Shown: one piece after another, positions 12,927 to 22,092 of the stretch | How the letters are laid out: the number at the start of each line of letters is the position of its first letter | How positions within the stretch are numbered: the first letter of the stretch is position 1 | DNA from: a virus | Direction: 5' to 3' (one strand) | DNA length: 64,000 nt | IMG/VR virus record: IMGVR_UViG_3300046787_000390 | Span: 1-64,000 of that record | Program-made: the position numbers and the translations under genes | Notes under the pieces: generated by a model | The model's database searches: none | What the model saw: the letters and a program-made list of their open reading frames with translations, nothing else | Told to the model about the DNA's origin: nothing

Positions 12927-13943
12927 ATGAGTAATCTATTTAAAAAAGCTGCAATCTTCACTGACATCCATTTTGGCTTAAAGTCAAACAGTATTCTCCA
13001 CAACGAGGACTGTTTGTCTTTTGTCAAGTGGGCAACTGCCAAAGCAAAAGAGGAAGGGTGCGAAACTTGTTTGTTCCTCGGCGATTGGCACAACAATCGA
13101 TCGACTATTAACATTGTTACACTCAACTACAGCCTGCAAGCACTGGAACACCTAAATGCTAATTTTCAACGTGTGTATTTTATTCCTGGTAACCACGATT
13201 TATATTATCGCGATAAACGTGACATTCAAAGCGTGGAGTTTGCAAAGCACCTCCCTCGTGTTCAAATCTGCAATGATTGGTTCAGCGATGGTAATGTCAC
13301 TATTGCCCCTTGGCTATGTGGAGATGATCATAAACGCCTGGCCAAACTAAAAGGTGATTACTTGTTTGGGCACTTTGAGCTGCCCGGTTATTTGATGAAC
13401 GCAATGGTGGAGATGCCGGATCATGGGGAATTGCAACGAGATCAGCTTGGGGGCTTCGGTCATGTGTTCACTGGGCACTTCCACAAGCGACAGACTAAAA
13501 AGAACATTACCTACATCGGTAATGCGTTCCCTCACAATTATGCAGATGCTGGCGACGACGAACGAGGCCTCACTATTCTGGAGTGGGGACAAGCGCCTAC
13601 TTTTCATCAATGGCCTGATCAACCGACCTATAGGGTATACGGTCTTGCGAACCTTATCGACAACGCTGAAACACTTCTTAAAGCCAAAATGCACGTTCGT
13701 GTCAATCTAGACATTGAGATCAGTTACGAAGAAGCAGGCTTTATCAAAGACAACTTCATCACAAATTACAACTTGCGGGAAATGTCGTTGATTCCGAACA
13801 AAGCGGTTGGAGTTGATGAGGACATGGCACCCGGAGATGTCAAGTTTGAATCAGTGGATCAAATTGTCACTGATCAGATTACTAATATTGAATCAGAATT
13901 CTACGATAACAAACTTCTACTAAAGATTTACCAAAATCTATGA
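12927..13943 (+). CDS. gp47: Recombination endonuclease subunit (Mre11/SbcD-like)
   Basis: Metallophosphoesterase motifs DIHFG, GDWH, GNHD, GHF, GHFH. Confidence 0.9.
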   Translation: MSNLFKKAAIFTDIHFGLKSNSILHNEDCLSFVKWATAKAKEEGCETCLFLGDWHNNRSTINIVTLNYSLQALEHLNANFQRVYFIPGNHDLYYRDKRDIQSVEFAKHLPRVQICNDWFSDGNVTIAPWLCGDDHKRLAKLKGDYLFGHFELPGYLMNAMVEMPDHGELQRDQLGGFGHVFTGHFHKRQTKKNITYIGNAFPHNYADAGDDERGLTILEWGQAPTFHQWPDQPTYRVYGLANLIDNAETLLKAKMHVRVNLDIEISYEEAGFIKDNFITNYNLREMSLIPNKAVGVDEDMAPGDVKFESVDQIVTDQITNIESEFYDNKLLLKIYQNL

Positions 13944-14749
13944 TCTACTGTGTTTGGTATCCCAGCGGAGGGTTTGGGCACTTTGTTAATGCAGTGCTAA
14001 CGTTGCACGGCGACGGATTTGCAAGACCAAAAAACGACGTTAAATTTAGTGCAGTCGGCGATTTACATTATCTTGATTTAGTGTTACCAAAATATCTTCA
14101 CAATTATAATTACAATTATAATTTAGAAACTGTTGACCTAAACAAAAATTATTCTGTACTAATCGATAACGGTATCAACGACGAATCAACACTGTTCCGT
14201 GAAAAATTTAAAAATTCAGAAGTTATCAAAATATGTTATACTGATCGCAGTTGGCCAATAGTTGCAAAAACATCGATTATCAAAGCATTAAAAACTCAGC
14301 TCGATAGCGAGTTGCCACTAGAGAATAACTGGGAGTTGGACAACAACTGGGCGGTTAGAGAAAAGTATTTTCTCTATCTCAAGGATCATCCAAACCGGCA
14401 TGCGTGGAGACCGAGTCCTGCTAGCCACACATTATCAGTTGAATCGTTGCTTGACTACGAGTTGTTTGTAGAATTACTACTGTCATTTGGGATCAACTGC
14501 ACTGATTTTAAAAGTTTACACAGTGAGATGTTGAAGAACAACTGCCAACATTTTTCTGGGTTCCATTCTTCAGATAAAATTATCAATGCAATTAAAACCA
14601 ATGATCATATAAACATCGCCGATGTTACCGATCTGTGGGATCAAGCAGTTGTAAATTATTTTTTATATCTCGAGTTTGGGGTTGAGGTACCAGCAAACAC
14701 GTATGCTAACTGGTTTACCAACACTTCAGAAATTAGTAAAATACTTTAA
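13940..14749 (+). CDS. Hypothetical protein (possible P-loop/sulfotransferase-like fold)
   Basis: 269-aa ORF overlapping the gp47 stop; N-terminal YPSGGFGHF glycine-rich loop. Confidence 0.5.
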   Translation: MIYCVWYPSGGFGHFVNAVLTLHGDGFARPKNDVKFSAVGDLHYLDLVLPKYLHNYNYNYNLETVDLNKNYSVLIDNGINDESTLFREKFKNSEVIKICYTDRSWPIVAKTSIIKALKTQLDSELPLENNWELDNNWAVREKYFLYLKDHPNRHAWRPSPASHTLSVESLLDYELFVELLLSFGINCTDFKSLHSEMLKNNCQHFSGFHSSDKIINAIKTNDHINIADVTDLWDQAVVNYFLYLEFGVEVPANTYANWFTNTSEISKIL

Positions 14750-14757
14750 CAATTTTT

Positions 14758-15375
14758 ATGTCAATGAATACTATAACACCAAATATACTGTACCGCAATG
14801 ATAAATTTTTATCGTTGAGTGAAGTTACTCACTATCAAAATTTATTGAAAAACAGAAATTGGGGACTCTCTGACACGCCAACCTTAGATACACTGCAATA
14901 TGTTAGTCAAGACTTGTACAACCATTACAAGTGGGACGGAAATTGGGACGATGCTAGATGGCTAGATTCAACGCCAGCAGATTGGGAACATTTATACAAT
15001 AAAATTGCTACTCATTTGCCGCCGCATTATGTACACTGGGTCGACGTTAAACTGACTGGATCTCTTCAAGGCGGAACTCCTATTCACAAAGATGCAGGTC
15101 CCGATCGATCTGGTGGTGACACAACAAAATTTAGCGAGTCGTTAACTGTATTGTGTAACTTAAACACTGGTTGGGACCCTCTGTGGGGCGGAGGATTAGT
15201 AGTTTATCAAACTTCAGTTGATTCTAATAATCATCAAGTAGCCGAAACAATACCGATTGTGCCCGGACAGTTGTTGATTGTTAATAACTGTTATCATTCT
15301 ATCGAATTAATTACTGAACCGTCCAAATGTAGAGTGTCTTTCATACTACATGTGTTAAAATATAAGCAATCATGA
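14758..15375 (+). CDS. 2OG-Fe(II) oxygenase (prolyl-4-hydroxylase-like)
   Basis: HxD (IHKD), WDPLWGGGL, distal H (YHSI) and R-x-S (RVSF). Confidence 0.8.
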   Translation: MSMNTITPNILYRNDKFLSLSEVTHYQNLLKNRNWGLSDTPTLDTLQYVSQDLYNHYKWDGNWDDARWLDSTPADWEHLYNKIATHLPPHYVHWVDVKLTGSLQGGTPIHKDAGPDRSGGDTTKFSESLTVLCNLNTGWDPLWGGGLVVYQTSVDSNNHQVAETIPIVPGQLLIVNNCYHSIELITEPSKCRVSFILHVLKYKQS

Positions 15376-17453
15376 TCAAATTTAAAAATTTAACTGTTAA
15401 AAACTTTATGAGTGTAGGTAACGCTACACAAGGCATCGACTTTGATCGTAAGGATCTTACCCTTGTGCTAGGCGAAAACTTAGACCTAGGCGGCGACGGT
15501 AGCCGCAATGGCACTGGCAAGACTACAATTATCAATGCATTAAGTTATGCCCTGTACGGCAATGCTCTAAGTAATATTCGTAAAGATAATCTTGTGAACA
15601 AAACTAACGGCAAGGCTATGCTGGTTAGTTTAGAGTTCGATGTTAACGGTAAAGAATACAAAATTGAACGTGGTCGTAAGCCCAACGTGCTAAAGTTCTA
15701 CGTTAATCACGAAGAACAAGCAGCAACAGACGAAGCACAGGGCGAAAACAAAGAGACACAAGAAGCAATTGAACGTATCCTAGGCATGAGTCATGACATG
15801 TTCAAACATGTGCTAGCCCTTAACACCTACACCGAACCGTTTCTAAGTTTAAAAGCCAATGAGCAGCGCACTATTATCGAGCAGTTGCTAGGCATTACAT
15901 TACTTTCGGAACGTGCCGACAAGATCAAAGAACTTAACAAGCAGACCAAAGACGGTATTGCACAAGAAGAGTTTCGTGTCCGGGCTGTACAAGAAGCAAA
16001 CAAACGTATTGAAGAACAAATCGAAAGTCTGCGCCGTAGACAAGGGCTATGGCAAAAGAAAGTAGACAGTGACTTAACCTATCTAGCTGCTCAATATACC
16101 GACCTGTCAAAAATTGACATCGAAGCTGAACTGCAAGCACATAAAGATCTAGCAGTATGGTCGGCTAAAAAGTCTCAACAAGATATATACAACTCTCTGG
16201 TTGCAAGAGAAACTGCCTGGCGACAAAAACACACATCTGAAGTTGCTGCTGCTGGGCATGCATACCTAGACAAGAATCGAATCAATATCGAAACTGAGCT
16301 CGAAGCGTGGGTAGCGTTGGCAGCATACAACCAAAAAGCCAAAGACATTGCAGATCTTGAAAAATTAATTGCTCGCTGTGTTTCCGACGAAGCTAAAGAA
16401 CAAAAAATTATCAATAAGTTAAAAGCCGAAGTGGAAGAGCTTAAAGCCCACAAGTGTTATGCGTGTGGGCAAGACTTCCATGACACCAATCACGAAACTG
16501 TGTTAGCTGCAAAAGAAAAAGCGTTGCAAGAAGCTGCGTTGCAAGCATTAGCAACTAACAGTCAATGGTTAGAAAATACAGATGCGTTAACAGCTCTAGG
16601 TGAATTAGGACCAAAGCCGGTAACACACTACAGCACAGAAGCCGAAGCTATTCGCCACTCAAGTGAGTTGAACAGCTTGAAGCAAGTGTTAGATGCCAAG
16701 GAAGCAGAAACAAATCCGTTCTCTGAACAAATTGAAGAATTAGAAGAAGTTGTTGTTCCTCCACAACCCACAACGCACTACGATACTGAAACAGAAGCAG
16801 TTGAGCACCGCAGCCGAGTAAACAACTTGTTAGATCAGATTGCCAAGAAGGGCGAAGAGAAGGATCCGTATACTGAGCAAATTGACGACATGCAGAAACA
16901 AGCTCTACAAAAAGTTGATTACGATAGAATCAACGAGCTTACACGCTTACAAGAACATCAAGACTTCTTGCTCAAGTTGTTAACTAGCAAAGACTCGTTT
17001 GTTCGCAAGAAGATCATCGATCAAAATTTAGCGTACCTAAATCAACGATTAACTCATTACTTAGATCGTATCGGATTGCCGCACACAGTTAAATTTAATA
17101 ACGATCTGTCTGTTAGCATTGAAGAGCTTGGTCGTGAACTTGACTTTGACAACTTGAGTCGAGGAGAGCGCACACGTTTGATTTTGTCAATGTCATGGGC
17201 CTTCCGAGATGTGTGGGAATCACTGTATCACCCGATCAACTTGCTGTTCATCGACGAATTAATTGACAACGGTTTAGACACAGCTGGTGTTGAAAACGCA
17301 CTAGGCCTGCTGAAGAAAATGAGCAGAGAGCGTCACAAGTCAATTTGGTTAGTATCACACAGAGACGAACTAGCCGGACGAGTAGAGAACATTCTCAAAG
17401 TAATTAAAGAGAATGGGTTCACATCATACAACACTGATATAGATGTCGCGTGA
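15372..17453 (+). CDS. gp46: Recombination ATPase subunit (Rad50/SbcC-like)
   Basis: Walker A NGTGKTT, zinc hook CYAC, signature LSRGE, Walker B LLFIDE, H-loop VSH. Confidence 0.92.
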   Translation: MIKFKNLTVKNFMSVGNATQGIDFDRKDLTLVLGENLDLGGDGSRNGTGKTTIINALSYALYGNALSNIRKDNLVNKTNGKAMLVSLEFDVNGKEYKIERGRKPNVLKFYVNHEEQAATDEAQGENKETQEAIERILGMSHDMFKHVLALNTYTEPFLSLKANEQRTIIEQLLGITLLSERADKIKELNKQTKDGIAQEEFRVRAVQEANKRIEEQIESLRRRQGLWQKKVDSDLTYLAAQYTDLSKIDIEAELQAHKDLAVWSAKKSQQDIYNSLVARETAWRQKHTSEVAAAGHAYLDKNRINIETELEAWVALAAYNQKAKDIADLEKLIARCVSDEAKEQKIINKLKAEVEELKAHKCYACGQDFHDTNHETVLAAKEKALQEAALQALATNSQWLENTDALTALGELGPKPVTHYSTEAEAIRHSSELNSLKQVLDAKEAETNPFSEQIEELEEVVVPPQPTTHYDTETEAVEHRSRVNNLLDQIAKKGEEKDPYTEQIDDMQKQALQKVDYDRINELTRLQEHQDFLLKLLTSKDSFVRKKIIDQNLAYLNQRLTHYLDRIGLPHTVKFNNDLSVSIEELGRELDFDNLSRGERTRLILSMSWAFRDVWESLYHPINLLFIDELIDNGLDTAGVENALGLLKKMSRERHKSIWLVSHRDELAGRVENILKVIKENGFTSYNTDIDVA

Positions 17454-18306
17454 TATAAAGATCTTACACTTAGAAACAACGGATGTGTGCCAAGCAGCAT
17501 GTCCGTTGTGTGCTCGTGAGACTGATCCAGAGTTCAACAAGAGTACAAAGCATCATCTTGACATGAATAAAATCATGCAGGTGTTTGATGCTGCACAAAT
17601 TTCTAAATTAGATAAAATGTTCATGTGTGGTAACTACGGTGATCCAGCTGCGGGCAAACACACGCTAGACATATACCGAGAGTTTCGCAAACTTAACCCC
17701 GACATTGTATTAGGAATGAATACAAATGGTGCATTGCGAACTTCAAAGTGGTGGGGTGAACTTGGAAGTATATTAAATCAAACACAAGACTATGTTGTGT
17801 TTAGTATCGACGGACTAGAAGATACCAATCACATCTATCGCAAAAATGTAAACTGGGATAACTTGATAACAAATGTTAATGCATTTGTTGCTGCTGGCGG
17901 TTCAGCACACTGGGACATGTTGGTGTACCAGCACAACGAACATCAAGTTGACCAATGCCTGCAACTTGCACGTGACTTGGGATTTAAGTGGTTTAGATCC
18001 AAGGTATCGTTGCGTAAGCTAACAGATAATTTAAGTTGGCCAACAGGTTGGTTGCAATCTAAACAAAACAGTAGTACAATACATTGTCATGCATTAGAAG
18101 AGCAAAGTCTTTTCATTGATGCACAAGGTCGGGTAAGTGTTTGTGCCTGGTTAGGGGCAACGCAAGGAGATACCATAAGTGATGTTGAACAAGTTAGGTC
18201 TACCTGGACATCAAGTAAGCCTCATCCTATTTGTTCAAGAATGTGTTCAGTGCAGTCATCTGGTACAAACTTTACCAACCAATGGAAATACGAAATAGAA
18301 CTATGA
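17443..18306 (+). CDS. Radical SAM protein with Cys-rich C-terminus (Twitch/SPASM-like)
   Basis: CQAACPLC (CX3CX2C), GNYGDP, TNG, FSIDG; C-terminal cysteines. Confidence 0.85.
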   Translation: MSRDIKILHLETTDVCQAACPLCARETDPEFNKSTKHHLDMNKIMQVFDAAQISKLDKMFMCGNYGDPAAGKHTLDIYREFRKLNPDIVLGMNTNGALRTSKWWGELGSILNQTQDYVVFSIDGLEDTNHIYRKNVNWDNLITNVNAFVAAGGSAHWDMLVYQHNEHQVDQCLQLARDLGFKWFRSKVSLRKLTDNLSWPTGWLQSKQNSSTIHCHALEEQSLFIDAQGRVSVCAWLGATQGDTISDVEQVRSTWTSSKPHPICSRMCSVQSSGTNFTNQWKYEIEL

Positions 18307-19334
18307 CTGCGAAGATTGTTAAGATTACTCCTACAGAGGACTTGTTCTCTATTACTTGGAGCATGCACAAAAGATGCAACAACGACTGCATGTACTGCGG
18401 CGACTTCTTGCACGACAACACTTCCCCAGTTAGACCACTTGCTGAATTGCAAGAACATTGGTTGCAGGTATTTGAGAAAACAAAGCATCTTGGACTCAAA
18501 TACAAGATCTCAATCACAGGCGGTGAAGCGGTAATCAACAAGGACTTTAGACCGTTTGTTGACTGGCTTACTGACAACTACAGCAGCAATATTCAAGTTA
18601 TCGGGCTAACTAGCAACGGAACTTCTAGTAAAAACTACTATCTAGGTCTACTCGAAAAAGTAACATTTTTAACATTGAGTACCCATACTGAAACAATGGA
18701 TGTAGAAAGATTTGTCGATACAGCTATTGCATGCAACACATATTCACAAAATACACCTGGTAAATTTTTCATGGTTAACATCATGGAAGAGTACTGGGCA
18801 CTCGACACAATTAAGCATCTTATTGATGTTTGCAAAGCCAACCAAATACGATATAGCATTAACAAGATCGATTACTACCGGTCTGGGTCAAAAGAGTATC
18901 CTGTGTTTGTAATTAACAAACAAAACGTTCCTCGCCCAGATTTGCAAAAGTCGCCAGAAGTAATAGAAGCAGCACATCGTGTGATTCAGGATTATGCTAA
19001 CTTGCACACAGTTCCTACTGATTACTATTACAACGTAGAAGTTGGGTACGACGATGATTCGTCTATTAATACGTATGCTACAAGACTCAAGTTTTTGGGT
19101 TTTAGCCAATTCAAGGGCTGGCAATGTTCAGCAGGCTATAAACGGATTTCTATTGCATCAGACACTTCGGTATACAGTGGCGAATGCAATAATCGATTGT
19201 TGGGTAAACTTTCAGATAACAGTTTTCAACTTTTACAGGCACCGGATATATGTTTACAGCGTACATGTACCGGCAACCCAGACGATCTAATGATAAACAA
19301 ACAAATTTTAGGTGACGACCCCCGGCAATCATAA
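18303..19334 (+). CDS. Radical SAM protein with Cys-rich C-terminus
   Basis: CNNDCMYC, ITGGEA, TSNG; C-terminal CSAG...C...C....C; ATGA overlap with the previous gene gives start 18303. Confidence 0.85.
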   Translation: MTAKIVKITPTEDLFSITWSMHKRCNNDCMYCGDFLHDNTSPVRPLAELQEHWLQVFEKTKHLGLKYKISITGGEAVINKDFRPFVDWLTDNYSSNIQVIGLTSNGTSSKNYYLGLLEKVTFLTLSTHTETMDVERFVDTAIACNTYSQNTPGKFFMVNIMEEYWALDTIKHLIDVCKANQIRYSINKIDYYRSGSKEYPVFVINKQNVPRPDLQKSPEVIEAAHRVIQDYANLHTVPTDYYYNVEVGYDDDSSINTYATRLKFLGFSQFKGWQCSAGYKRISIASDTSVYSGECNNRLLGKLSDNSFQLLQAPDICLQRTCTGNPDDLMINKQILGDDPRQS

Positions 19335-19343
19335 TTACTGTTA

Positions 19344-19775
19344 ATGTCGTGGCAATATCAAAATCAACTCGTAGAAACTTTACCAGAAGACTGTGTTGGC
19401 TTTGTATATCTAATCACTAACATTACTACTCAACGCAAATACATAGGCAAAAAACTAGCAAAATTTAAGAAAACAACTTACAAAACAGTTAAACTTAAAA
19501 ACGGCACAAAGAAAAAAAAGAAAATTAGAGGAAGCATTGATTCTGACTGGCGAGAGTATTACGGTTCTAGCCCAGAATTAACCAAAGATGTACTAGCATT
19601 AGGCACAGCAAACTTTACTCGTGAAATATTGTTTTACTGCAAATCAAAAGCAGAATGCAGTTATATCGAGGCTAGAGAACAGTTTGCAAGGCGTGTGCTA
19701 GAATCAGCAGATTATTACAACGGGCATATTCAAGTACGTGTACACGGAAGTCACGTAATAGGTAAAATTAAATGA
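19344..19775 (+). CDS. Short GIY-YIG nuclease-family protein
   Basis: GFVYLITN...KYIGKK, YYGSS, conserved E and YYN; no C-terminal DNA-binding domain. Confidence 0.75.
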   Translation: MSWQYQNQLVETLPEDCVGFVYLITNITTQRKYIGKKLAKFKKTTYKTVKLKNGTKKKKKIRGSIDSDWREYYGSSPELTKDVLALGTANFTREILFYCKSKAECSYIEAREQFARRVLESADYYNGHIQVRVHGSHVIGKIK

Positions 19776-20560
19776 CAGTATCTCTATTCGTAGGATGTTC
19801 TTTTACTTCAGGTAAAGGGTTTGATCTTGAAAAAGACGAGCCAGGCCTATGGGTAAATCAAGTACATTCAACTAACAAAGATCTACAAAAAACCGAACTT
19901 GTTAATCACGGCGTCTCCGGAGCTTCAAATTCAGAAATTTTCTACAATGCAGTTAGCGGGTTAGTTAACTTCACTCCTAAGTATATGTTTGTTCAGTGGA
20001 CTCGAAGCCCACGATACAGAGTACAATTAGGTGTTGAATCTTATGTTGCTAGTCAGTACTTTGGTATGGACGGCGAAGTATTTGACCACAACTTGCACAG
20101 TATAAATTACACCGCTGGGTATCTCGAAGATGTAAGAAATAGATTTCTATCGTTACATCATCCGCAAGGCGGAATAGTAGAGATAATTAAGTACACAAAC
20201 ACTCTTATAAATCTTTCAAAAACTACAAACACTAAAGTATTTTTTATCAACGGACTATGTCCGTGGGATGATCAATTTTTTAATAAAATTAACGGCAACA
20301 CTCCAAGCGATTACACCAAATACACACAGTATCTACTAGATTCAGACACTAGAAGCGACCAAGAAGTTTTTACACTTTACAATAAAATACATAACGAATA
20401 CTCACAAGCTGGCAGCATACAAGAGCAGTACTGGATTAATTTATATAATTCTTTCACTGACAACAAAATCGACGTTAACAACGATAATACACACCCAGGC
20501 ATCAAATCCAATCAGCTGTATTTTGACATCGTCAACCAATTCTTAACAAACACAATTTAA
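19772..20560 (+). CDS. SGNH/GDSL-like hydrolase-fold protein
   Basis: GCSFT (block I), GVSGASN (block II), DNTHP (DxxH). Confidence 0.65.
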   Translation: MTVSLFVGCSFTSGKGFDLEKDEPGLWVNQVHSTNKDLQKTELVNHGVSGASNSEIFYNAVSGLVNFTPKYMFVQWTRSPRYRVQLGVESYVASQYFGMDGEVFDHNLHSINYTAGYLEDVRNRFLSLHHPQGGIVEIIKYTNTLINLSKTTNTKVFFINGLCPWDDQFFNKINGNTPSDYTKYTQYLLDSDTRSDQEVFTLYNKIHNEYSQAGSIQEQYWINLYNSFTDNKIDVNNDNTHPGIKSNQLYFDIVNQFLTNTI

Positions 20561-21030
20561 GCAGTTACGACTCGCACAGGTCAATATCATGTGCCTAGAG
20601 ACAACTCGATAAAAAGAGGGACGGAAGCCTCGCCGCGCTAGCGAGCACTCAATCACTATCCTTAACAGGACGACGATCGCTTAACACCTGCGGTTTGATT
20701 GTTTGAACAGAATTTTAAAAGGGAAAAAGACGTAGCAGTGATGCTACACGATCAGTATATGTGTTAGCGTATGTATATTGACCCGCCGTTGTTATAAAGA
20801 CGCAACTCGAGGTACCGGACAACCGCCTCTGTAATGTTGTAACGCTATGTGGCTGTATGAACTCAGATGAAGTTCCAGTTTTTATCTTTGCCCTGTGCGG
20901 GCAAAGTGTGACCATTGAATCTAGATGAAGCATTAAATCGCTTCGCTCTTGCTTCTTTACTACTTCTTAAAAAAACTGTTGTTGAGCGATAGCGATAACA
21001 ACAGATGTCTGTAAGACATCTTCCAGTGTG
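20561..21030 (+). ncRNA. Candidate large structured non-coding RNA (strand inferred)
   Basis: ~470 nt without a credible ORF; at least 10 hairpins, a multibranch junction and a long-range closing stem; G-U pairs and a GNRA loop favour the + strand. Confidence 0.5.
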
Positions 21031-21037
21031 TTACTAG

Positions 21038-21274
21038 TTAGAAGAAGGGTAATCCTGACTTCTTAGTTGTTTCCATGTTGTCTTTGATGATAGAACTAAT
21101 AATTTTTCTTTCCTCTTGACTTAGGTTGAGTGCGTGGTCGTAGGTAATGCCTCCTCGCATAAACCATGACATTTTCAAAGCCTCCTGTCTTATCGCGTTA
21201 CAATCGGATTCCATTTGGTCAACGATTTGCGAAATTGTGTCTGAGTCGGATGTCAGGAGGCGGGAGCGAAAAAA
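21038..21274 (-). CDS. Small baseplate/tail assembly protein; possibly the -1 frameshift extension of the upstream gene
   Basis: ORF ...FFRSRLLTSDSDTISQIVDQMESDCNAIRQEALKMSWFMRGG...GLPFF overlaps the end of the upstream gene at a T TTT TTC heptamer. Confidence 0.6.
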   Translation of the reverse strand, partial: FFRSRLLTSDSDTISQIVDQMESDCNAIRQEALKMSWFMRGGITYDHALNLSQEERKIISSIIKDNMETTKKSGLPFF

Positions 21275-22092
21275 TTGGACATGTCTAATGTAAGCATCTG
21301 TTGGTACTCTTTGGTACATTCGTGACAGGTCATGTTCATTGGTTGTATTTCAGCTTTTGATTTTTCAGAAACAATGTGATCCTTGATTTGATTAAACAAC
21401 GCACGATCGGCATTTTTAAGAAAGTCAACAAGGTACATCGGGTCATTGACTAAGGCATTTGGTGTTTTAATCGCTGCAATACTTTGTGCTAATGCCTCTA
21501 CAGTAACTTCAGTGATCTGCTTTAGTGCTTGAGTAAGCGCATTGATTTTTACATCTTCGTTGCCTTCGGTTAGATCTAAACTTTGCAGCTTGCGTTGTTC
21601 TGCAAACTGCTTTTGATTGTTATCGTTGAGATTCTGATAAGACATTGGCTTGAAGTAAATTTCCATGTCTCTAAATTTGATAATTTTATTGTAGTCTGGA
21701 CTTTTAATAGTGTCAAGGACTGTGCGCAAATCAATGCCATAGGTGGCTTCATTGCCGCAATGCGGGCATCGACTTTCTAGTTCCATTTTATGTCCGTAGC
21801 TGGCGATACGAATACTAACCAAGATGGTATCAACGTCTGTTGCTGGTATTGCCCAGGGATTTCTAATTCCCGGAATACAGCTTTGAATTACACTCGTAGT
21901 AGCACTGCCGTTAAACAGAGCATCTGGTGTGCGATATGTAATCTCGTCAATTGCTGTCATTGGGTATACAGGAACTTCGCCAGTGGGCGGCATATCAAGC
22001 GAACCCTCGGGATAGAACTCACCGCCGCTGGGCAGTTTGATGTGAATAGCAGGTTGTCTAAAATACTGCTGTAGTGGGTTGTTATGGATCAT
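21253..22092 (-). CDS. gp26: Baseplate hub assembly protein, gp26-like / tail assembly chaperone
   Basis: NPLQQYFRQP..LPSGG.FY, MTAIDEI, two CxxC pairs; GAGG RBS before ATG 22092. Confidence 0.65.
   Translation of the reverse strand: MIHNNPLQQYFRQPAIHIKLPSGGEFYPEGSLDMPPTGEVPVYPMTAIDEITYRTPDALFNGSATTSVIQSCIPGIRNPWAIPATDVDTILVSIRIASYGHKMELESRCPHCGNEATYGIDLRTVLDTIKSPDYNKIIKFRDMEIYFKPMSYQNLNDNNQKQFAEQRKLQSLDLTEGNEDVKINALTQALKQITEVTVEALAQSIAAIKTPNALVNDPMYLVDFLKNADRALFNQIKDHIVSEKSKAEIQPMNMTCHECTKEYQQMLTLDMSNFFAPAS

Follow-up and report, generated by a model that had tools for sequence, protein, structure and literature searches.

What occupies the largest stretch without genes in a gene-dense piece of an uncultured phage genome? 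The question is raised by 64,000 nucleotides (nt) of viral DNA, positions 1 to 64,000 of IMG/VR record IMGVR_UViG_3300046787_000390 (the window). Between the stop codons of two open reading frames (ORFs), 19772-20560 on the plus strand and 21038-21319 on the minus strand, lie 477 nt that hold no ORF of 80 amino acids (aa) or more. An earlier reading, made from the letters without database searches (the sequence-only reading), had called this the largest non-coding gap of the window, which is confirmed at that threshold, and had seen in it either a large structured phage RNA in the manner of GOLLD, ROOL and HEARO or a structured replication origin. The analysis described here shows that positions 20560-21022 of the plus strand very probably encode a single non-coding RNA, some 460 nt long, which belongs over its full length to a family found in T4-like (Kyanoviridae-like) uncultured phages. 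The RNA is comprised of two domains, a catalogued 5' domain (Rfam RF01718) and a 3' domain of about 320 nt that is in no Rfam family.

A coding role of the gap was considered and rejected. The longest ORF inside it, 72 aa at 20715-20933 on the minus strand, encodes a protein that is not conserved, the short plus-strand ORFs show no conservation among the relatives described below, and reading TAG as glutamine opens no reading frame in the gap. The median longest stop-free stretch in 88 relatives is 53 aa on the plus strand and 70 aa on the minus strand. The length of the element in relatives has a median of 442 nt and ranges from 409 to 484 nt.

The identity of the 5' domain comes from Rfam, which was scanned at the gathering score over the whole window and at E-values of up to 10 over 20400-21400. 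The Polynucleobacter-1 model (RF01718) matches 136 nt, 20569-20704 on the plus strand, with 91.1 bits against a gathering cut-off of 37 (E 3.5e-18) and over its full length, positions 1-141 of 141. The consensus helices of the model are kept in the 88 relatives by compensatory changes. Because these 136 nt at the 5' end match RF01718, the element is not wholly new. The sequence-only reading had stated that a match to a known Rfam family would remove its novelty, and this applies to the first third, which is already catalogued; the larger, knotted remainder is not. The remaining 320 nt or so have no Rfam match above cut-off in 20400-21400, where the best sub-threshold match is cow-rumen-2 (RF02947; 20751-20848, plus strand; 16.9 bits against 66, E 3.2). 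Neither GOLLD, ROOL and HEARO nor group I and II introns, RNase P RNA and transfer-messenger RNA (tmRNA) gave a match in the same scans, and ARAGORN found no tmRNA in the window. The genes on either side are intact and vary from locus to locus, whereas an intron would split a host gene. The statement that the RNA is not a tmRNA, RNase P RNA or intron is therefore borne out. The comparison with GOLLD, ROOL and HEARO holds for a large and ornate RNA, with covariation in 88 relatives and a pseudoknot, and fails for membership in those families.

Relatives were drawn by exact match to a 21-mer, 20809-20829, which is the most conserved part of the RNA. It is present in at least 120 IMG/VR viral contigs, and the counts of 21-mer loci are counts among the matches listed. 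The sampled loci belong to one related phage group. With full flanks, 108 loci align to the window over 20560-21022 at 58-76% identity, which gives, with the window, 109 sequences, 95 of them distinct. Four viral contigs found by way of the SGNH-like protein encoded upstream of the RNA all align with the window over the whole gap; in loci L003-L005 this protein is only 50-53% identical to that of the window, and the RNA gap still aligns. A search of 185,579 prokaryote species genomes for the 21-mer gave two hits, both in contigs of metagenome-assembled genomes, one of which (L126) is a true member with 160.4 bits. The other (L127) is probably a chance hit, with only 23 nt of the model matched. 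A blastn search (word size 11) with 20400-21200 of the window gave no match in 50,697 cultured-phage records. The core of the 3' domain is present once in each of the genomes G000, G002 and G003 (nhmmer and the covariance model R1, described below), with no paralogues. A large group of T4-like and jumbo phages, uncultured and from freshwater, maintains the RNA as a single copy.

The structure was examined on a MAFFT alignment of 88 sequences (A3), all less than 95% identical to each other. RNAalifold predicts 65 pairs on A3, 38 of which have compensatory changes. A blind scan for stacked covarying columns recovered the Rfam helices of the 5' domain and, in addition, seven helices of the 3' domain including a pseudoknot. 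A structure of the 3' domain set by hand has 60 pairs in 10 helices, and 41 of these pairs have changes on both sides (double changes) among the 88 sequences. The 3' domain is paired in 89.5% of its cells, compared with 72.7% after shuffling, a control that ignores the relatedness of the sequences and in which none of 500 shuffles reached the observed value, and with 32-45% when the structure was slid. The corresponding covariation scores are 0.443, 0.150 (shuffled) and 0.05-0.09 (slid). The sequence-only reading had proposed that homologues be collected and tested for covariation, and this test came out in favour of a structured RNA.

Eleven of the helices named in that reading are supported overall. 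In the 5' domain, double changes are found in five of five pairs of GCACA/TGTGC (20574-78/20590-94), three of five of CTCGC/GCGAG (20629-33/20641-45), four of six of CAATCA/TGATTG (20650-55/20696-701) and three of five of GATCG/CGGTT (20675-79/20691-95), and TCCT/AGGA is paired in 80% of its cells against 39-57% when slid. The GTAGCA-GTGA-TGCTAC hairpin, the G-U-rich stem at 20750-20783 and GCAAC/GTTGT, all in the 3' domain, are equally supported by double changes (P7, P8 and the outermost nested helix in Table 1), as is ATGTCT/AGACAT in six of six pairs. Seven of eight pairs of CTGTTGTT/AACAACAG have double changes, with only 60% of the cells paired on A3, and CTTTGCCC/GGGCAAAG is paired in 95.6% of its cells, with a double change in only one of eight pairs. 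GAACT/AGTTC, on the other hand, could not be upheld, being paired in only 48% of its cells. GAGG/CCTC and CGG-ACAA-CCG are invariant across the relatives. Since both lie in the 21-mer by which the loci were drawn, their invariance speaks neither for nor against them. The proposed long-range pairing GCAGTTAC/GTGGCTGT, which would join the 5' end to 20849-56, has 67% of its cells paired against 27-40% when slid, but a competing pairing, 20560-20565/20698-20703, is stronger (91%). The competing pairing overlaps the 3' strand of CAATCA/TGATTG.

The RNA is assigned to the plus strand because the Rfam match is strand-specific, because the helices contain 578 G-U cells and 194 A-C cells, and because GNRA-type loops are legible solely on this strand. 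The last hairpin, P14, has no U-tract on the plus strand. Its complement resembles a terminator for the convergent gene, and the terminator scan gave a signal on the minus strand only.

The family is modular. A second sample of 80 loci was collected through the GIY-YIG nuclease protein encoded upstream of the RNA, and 69 of these have room of at least 480 nt downstream of the gene. With nhmmer profiles of the domains, 40 of the 69 contain both domains, 20 the 3' domain only and 9 neither. Twenty loci were scanned for RF01718, namely the 9 that lack both domains and 11 of the 20 in which the 3' domain stands by itself, and none of them gave a match. Alignment revealed a second subfamily in which a different 5' domain is joined to the same 3' architecture of core, repeat modules and terminal hairpins; its loci (L159, L200, L183, L189, L172, L152 and L186) lie about 150-620 nt after the GIY-YIG gene. 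This subfamily has an extra hairpin after the core and the core loop UCAA instead of ACAA, and the pseudoknot pairing is preserved with quite different letters, as judged by eye. Since it also follows this different 5' domain, the 3' domain has the wider distribution of the two parts. A covariance model of the 3' core (R1, 179 positions) has one match in the record of the window (182 bits), one in a 345-kilobase (kb) phage that carries RF01718 (182 bits) and one in the complete 347-kb phage G002, which lacks RF01718 (119.9 bits). Eight of the nine loci with neither domain have weak R1 matches (17.8-22.7 bits, with rough E-values), all on the plus strand downstream of the gene. Two loci, L047 and L114, contain an extra 40-60 nt between the 5' and 3' domains (A3 columns about 235-275); the linker between the domains therefore tolerates expansion.

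The 3' domain contains two repeat modules, each ending near a heptamer of the form RGAURAN. The three variable letters of the heptamer match between the modules in 88, 88 and 87 of the 88 sequences, and in a wider sample the two heptamers are identical in 134 of 137 loci, with seven matched combinations of letters. On a tree built without the heptamer columns, position 20865 changed 16 times and 20923 changed along with it; on supported branches, all eight of the independent pairs changed in the same direction (p 0.008). For positions 20871 and 20929, the number of changes is 14 and 13. In this covariation the letters of the two heptamers are the same rather than complementary, and they lie at a constant offset in parallel orientation. 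No third column covarying with them was found in the alignment, just 2 of 131 RNAs contain the reverse complement of their own heptamer, and the flanking DNA holds no excess of heptamers or their complements. No residue of the GIY-YIG protein tracks the heptamer states (best mutual information 0.22 of 0.99). Loop-loop pairing between the modules was rejected, the mean longest run being 3.14 for cognate and 3.14 for non-cognate combinations. The identity of the heptamers may reflect direct homo-pairing, one bivalent or dimeric partner in trans, or intermolecular RNA contacts in a multimer. A separate observation concerns the octamer AUCURGAU of module 2 (20919-20926, plus strand), which is self-complementary, perfectly if R is A and with two G-U pairs if R is G. 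All its positions except R are invariant or nearly so (at least 90%) in the 88 relatives. It may be a dimerisation site or a palindromic protein site.

Table 1. Coordinates of the RNA, its structural elements and the adjoining genes in the window
Feature	Position	Strand	Remarks
GIY-YIG nuclease gene, 143 aa, catalytic domain alone	19344-19775	+	Pfam PF19835 SegE_GIY-YIG, E 6.6e-32
262-aa gene, inserted in this lineage behind the GIY-YIG gene and ahead of the RNA	19772-20560	+	SGNH-like according to the sequence-only reading
5' domain, Polynucleobacter-1 motif	20560-20707	+	Rfam match 20569-20704; helices with compensatory changes
Hairpins of the 5' domain	20574-20594, 20629-20645	+	Covariation
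Junction of the 5' domain	Closed by 20650-20655/20696-20701	+	Encloses 20659-20670 and 20675-20695
P7 hairpin, GNRA-type tetraloop (GUGA in the window)	20732-20747	+	5/6 pairs double-changed
P8 long hairpin; loop 20764-20769 forms the pseudoknot	20750-20783	+	13/14 pairs double-changed, 91.1% paired
Pseudoknot	20766-20769/70 with 20842/3-20846	+	4/4 pairs double-changed, 98.6% paired; 5/5 in the blind scan
Three nested helices	20802-06/20836-40, 20809-12/20826-29, 20816-18/20823-25	+	Surround the near-invariant core 20809-20829; outer helix 3/5 pairs double-changed
Repeat module 1, GUGRC ... AACUC-RGAURAN	20849-20873	+	Heptamer 20865-20871
P12 hairpin between the repeat modules	20886-20906	+	95.6% paired; 1/8 pairs double-changed
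Repeat module 2, GUGAC ... AAUCU-RGAURAN	20908-20931	+	Heptamer 20923-20929
Variable A/U-rich linker, 31% G+C	20932-20975	+	Length differs among relatives; gap-rich, poorly conserved columns
P13 hairpin with inner GAGC-GNRA-GCGA unit	20976-21004	+	Double changes in 7/8 outer and 2/2 inner pairs
P14 terminal hairpin, likely 3' end	21005-21022	+	6/6 pairs double-changed, 98.6% paired
93-aa ORF, convergent, 3' boundary of the RNA, baseplate-hub (gp26-like) module	21038-21319	-	

The window belongs to a T4-like phage, with genes for gp55 (late sigma factor), SbcCD-like gp47 and gp46, gp26 (baseplate hub), gp20 (portal), gp21 (prohead protease) and gp23 (capsid); the virus record is 133 kb long and 39% complete. 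The RNA closes a same-strand block that extends from gp55 by way of the radical-SAM genes to the genes for the GIY-YIG and SGNH-like proteins; there the RNA meets the convergent baseplate module. In relatives, the gene directly upstream of the RNA is usually the GIY-YIG gene. The 262-aa gene intervenes in 7 of 127 loci, and RF01718 lies directly behind it in all four loci found by way of its protein. The sequence-only reading had placed the RNA downstream of GIY-YIG and SGNH genes; the GIY-YIG assignment was confirmed by Pfam, and for the SGNH assignment no Pfam or PHROG family was found with the 262-aa protein. The downstream ORFs fall into many unrelated clusters, the largest of which (43 of 127 loci) is convergent as in the window; clusters on the same strand comprise 13, 7, 4 and 3 loci.

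Several other features of the window were recorded. The 93-aa ORF and the end of the gp26-like baseplate-hub ORF share 67 nt, read in different frames (21253-21319, minus strand), which may be due to a mis-set start or a frameshift site. A gene for a 2OG-Fe(II) oxygenase-like protein and two radical-SAM genes are interleaved with the gp47- and gp46-like genes (13940-19334, plus strand), an arrangement unusual for the T4 module. A tRNA with the anticodon CUA (amber) lies at 30840-30916 on the minus strand (tRNA-Pyl according to ARAGORN; Rfam tRNA, 53 bits), and the genes of the window are intact under the standard code, so that no recoding is evident despite this tRNA. A second catalogued RNA of the same phage, freshwater-2 (RF02980; 30982-31064, plus strand; 73.8 bits against 49.9), ends at the start of ORF 31062-31880.

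How would the RNA be made, and what would it do? A sigma-70 scan gave no promoter-like site in 20300-21400 of the window, and the T4 late motif, TATAAATA, is present in none of 94 upstream regions. Co-transcription with the upstream operon appears to be the simplest reading, because the RNA starts at or overlaps the upstream stop codon and no promoter was found. Most likely, the RNA would be made as the 3' tail of the transcript of a replication and recombination operon, containing the gp55-, gp47- and gp46-like, radical-SAM and nuclease genes, from which it might afterwards be cut free. The two terminal hairpins would protect its 3' end, and the RNA would act in trans as a compactly folded scaffold. 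The identical heptamers would be a bivalent contact site for a dimeric or duplicated partner, for each other or for other copies of the RNA. In a bolder reading, they might pair mutually or between molecules, the RNA self-assembling like ROOL and GOLLD. A trans-acting scaffold made as the tail of the operon transcript is a tentative proposal, possible rather than probable. The identity of the element and this mechanism, blended into a single judgement, appear fairly probable. A role as replication origin, guide RNA or cis-regulator seems unlikely to us.

A number of points weigh against a plus-strand structured RNA acting in trans. Taken by itself, the window sequence folds on the plus strand with a z-score of -1.50, which is no better than shuffled sequence (8 of 100 shuffles are as good); the minus strand has a z-score of -3.49. 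Because folding energy does not separate the plus strand from the shuffles, the case for structure rests on covariation. The alignment used for the latter is a MAFFT alignment, and the structure was partly derived from the same sequences and so has an advantage in the slid control. The 121 main loci were all obtained by the exact 21-mer, and the invariance of the core and a part of the family picture are set by this sampling. Nineteen sequencing runs have matches, each to less than a quarter of the sampled words. Four runs yield only contigs of relatives, from RNA-labelled libraries, which lie on the conserved part of the RNA with little on the flanks; strand, ends and expression are unreadable from these contigs, which are possibly DNA, and the flanks of the relatives are beyond the 80% likeness threshold. 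The near-constant presence of a GIY-YIG gene upstream (99 of 102 loci) fits a functional tie to the nuclease. A partner for the heptamers was not found among the RNA columns, the flanking DNA and the GIY-YIG residues. Finally, the table of Weinberg et al. (2010, Genome Biol 11:R31, PMC2864571) marks Polynucleobacter-1 as 'cis-reg: y, switch: ?'. Among the titles and abstracts on phage structured RNAs that were covered, none describes this RNA, and the supplement of PMC2864571 may cover the flanks of the motif.

The tie to the nuclease can be read in different ways. The RNA could be the partner of the adjacent nuclease, which consists of its catalytic domain only, and provide target recognition, regulation or a scaffold in an RNA-dependent nuclease system. 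We regard this as unlikely, even though the linkage is close. Of 102 21-mer loci with at least 450 nt upstream, 99 have a GIY-YIG homologue upstream of the RNA and on its strand. In 89 loci the end of this gene is no more than 60 nt from the start of the RNA; in 10 a further gene separates the two, the distance being 60-1824 nt; and in three the homologue is missing, one of these loci spanning 564 nt upstream. This junction is kept while the downstream neighbour varies, and in the protein-based sample 60 of the 69 loci have the RNA core by nhmmer and 8 more the weak R1 matches. An unrelated 171-aa nuclease, PDDEXK_15 (PF24608, E 1e-24 to 1e-26), takes the same slot in L117 (1257-1772, plus strand) and L120 (7962-8477, plus strand). 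A narrower version, in which the RNA is a specificity or assembly subunit that aims or gates interchangeable GIY-YIG and PDDEXK nucleases, with the heptamers reading the target or holding two enzymes, is improbable. Against a partnership of either kind, homologues of the GIY-YIG protein are present in 453 cultured-phage records, mostly of Kyanoviridae (445 at 80% coverage or more), while blastn found the RNA in none of that collection. The two cultured genomes checked, Melnitz-3 and S-SRM01, encode the protein (51% and 43% identity) and have no match to R1 or RF01718; the protein therefore does not need the RNA in general. Other genes stand between nuclease and RNA in the 10 loci mentioned and in the window, no residue of the protein follows the heptamers, and a guide-like variable end was not seen, the three heptamer places being the sole co-varying variable letters. 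Within one related phage group, moreover, conserved gene order may suffice as an explanation. Alternatively, the nuclease genes could be selfish genes of the homing type, settled beside a dependable, near-invariant cleavage target, and the linkage would then say nothing about the role of the RNA. This is distinctly unlikely. It would account for two unrelated nuclease families in one slot, for a Pfam family named after the T4 homing endonuclease SegE, and for an RNA core that outdoes the flanking proteins in conservation, if the number of contigs with the exact 21-mer is set against the identity of the SGNH-like protein in L003-L005. However, selfish genes are patchy, whereas the GIY-YIG gene is near-universal in these loci, with a median protein identity of 75%, and is common in cultured Kyanoviridae. 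Known homing enzymes carry DNA-binding modules, which the GIY-YIG protein lacks.

The remaining two readings concern a replication origin and a leader of the next gene. As an RNA-primed replication origin, comparable to ColE1 RNA II and the R-loop origins of T4, the structured transcript would form a persistent hybrid with its template and prime DNA synthesis, and the heptamer repeats could be protein-binding sites at the level of DNA. The position of the element at the end of the replication and recombination block, adjoining the baseplate-hub module, the A/U-rich variable tract 20932-20975 and the repeats evolving by identity, as is typical of sites for one protein, would agree with an origin. 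The covariation, GNRA loops and pseudoknot over 460 nt, on the other hand, point to selection on a folded RNA far beyond what a primer needs. The gene junction is convergent, not divergent, and the heptamers show no enrichment in the flanks. The check on GC-skew suggested in the sequence-only reading lent no support: the cumulative minimum is at about 5.3 kb of the 133-kb record, with no inflection near 20.6 kb, a weak test in a record 39% complete. T4-like phages have several origins and recombination-driven replication. Overall, an origin is very improbable. The cis-regulatory label of RF01718, which presumably stands for a place in the 5' untranslated region (UTR) of one conserved gene family, would make the element a leader, either a 5' UTR element or a riboswitch, for the downstream gene. 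To this we give hardly any credence. The element does not lie in the 5' UTR of one conserved gene family, which bears on the interpretation of the motif and not on membership in the model. In the window, as in the largest downstream cluster, the gene that follows is convergent, the same-strand downstream genes belong to unrelated clusters, and 320 nt of conserved structure with two hairpins at its end separate the motif from the next gene. The unrelated downstream neighbours therefore exclude a leader role for one gene family.

To our knowledge, well-supported bacterial and phage RNA classes of more than 400 nt are few, and the ones investigated so far (RNase P, group I and II introns, OLE, ROOL, GOLLD and omega RNAs) have unusual biochemistry. 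The RNA described here resembles HEARO and the omega RNAs of IscB and TnpB: in each case a small nuclease gene immediately adjoins the gene of a structured RNA that is several hundred nt long. It differs from them in the fold of the nuclease, which is GIY-YIG or PDDEXK and not RuvC/HNH, in the lack of a visible guide-like variable end and of an Rfam match, and in that the nuclease occurs without the RNA in cultured phages. With GOLLD and ROOL it shares the character of a large, intricately folded, phage-associated non-coding RNA. ROOL, GOLLD and similar RNAs are described as forming RNA-only multimers (bioRxiv 10.1101/2024.12.08.627333), and such multimers are one possible reading of the identity-covarying heptamers. 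In contrast to GOLLD and ROOL, however, it is smaller, has no match to their Rfam models and has no adjacent tRNA cluster, the single tRNA seen in the window being 10 kb away. Cow-rumen-2 aligns weakly but over its full length (model 1-106). The alignment takes in a hairpin, whose loop is of the UUAGC type, and after it CCGCC and nested helices. Cow-rumen-2 may, judging by this alignment, be a distant relative of the 3' core.

The closest known system is Polynucleobacter-1, the whole model of which is matched at 20569-20704 with helices that covary in the relatives. It is catalogued at 141 positions, whereas the RNA has about 460 nt, and the additional 320 nt, with the pseudoknot, the invariant core and the repeat modules, have no Rfam model and also stand behind another 5' domain. 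The tentative cis-regulatory label of the motif conflicts with the gene context of the RNA. What was catalogued as a 141-nt candidate cis-regulator is the optional front part of a knotted RNA of about 460 nt. The target for modelling shifts accordingly to a full-length covariance model centred on the 3' core, and the place to seek a function shifts to infected cells and to action in trans, perhaps jointly with the nuclease encoded next to the RNA. A sharp and testable handle on this function is provided by the two heptamers, which stayed identical through 16 independent changes.

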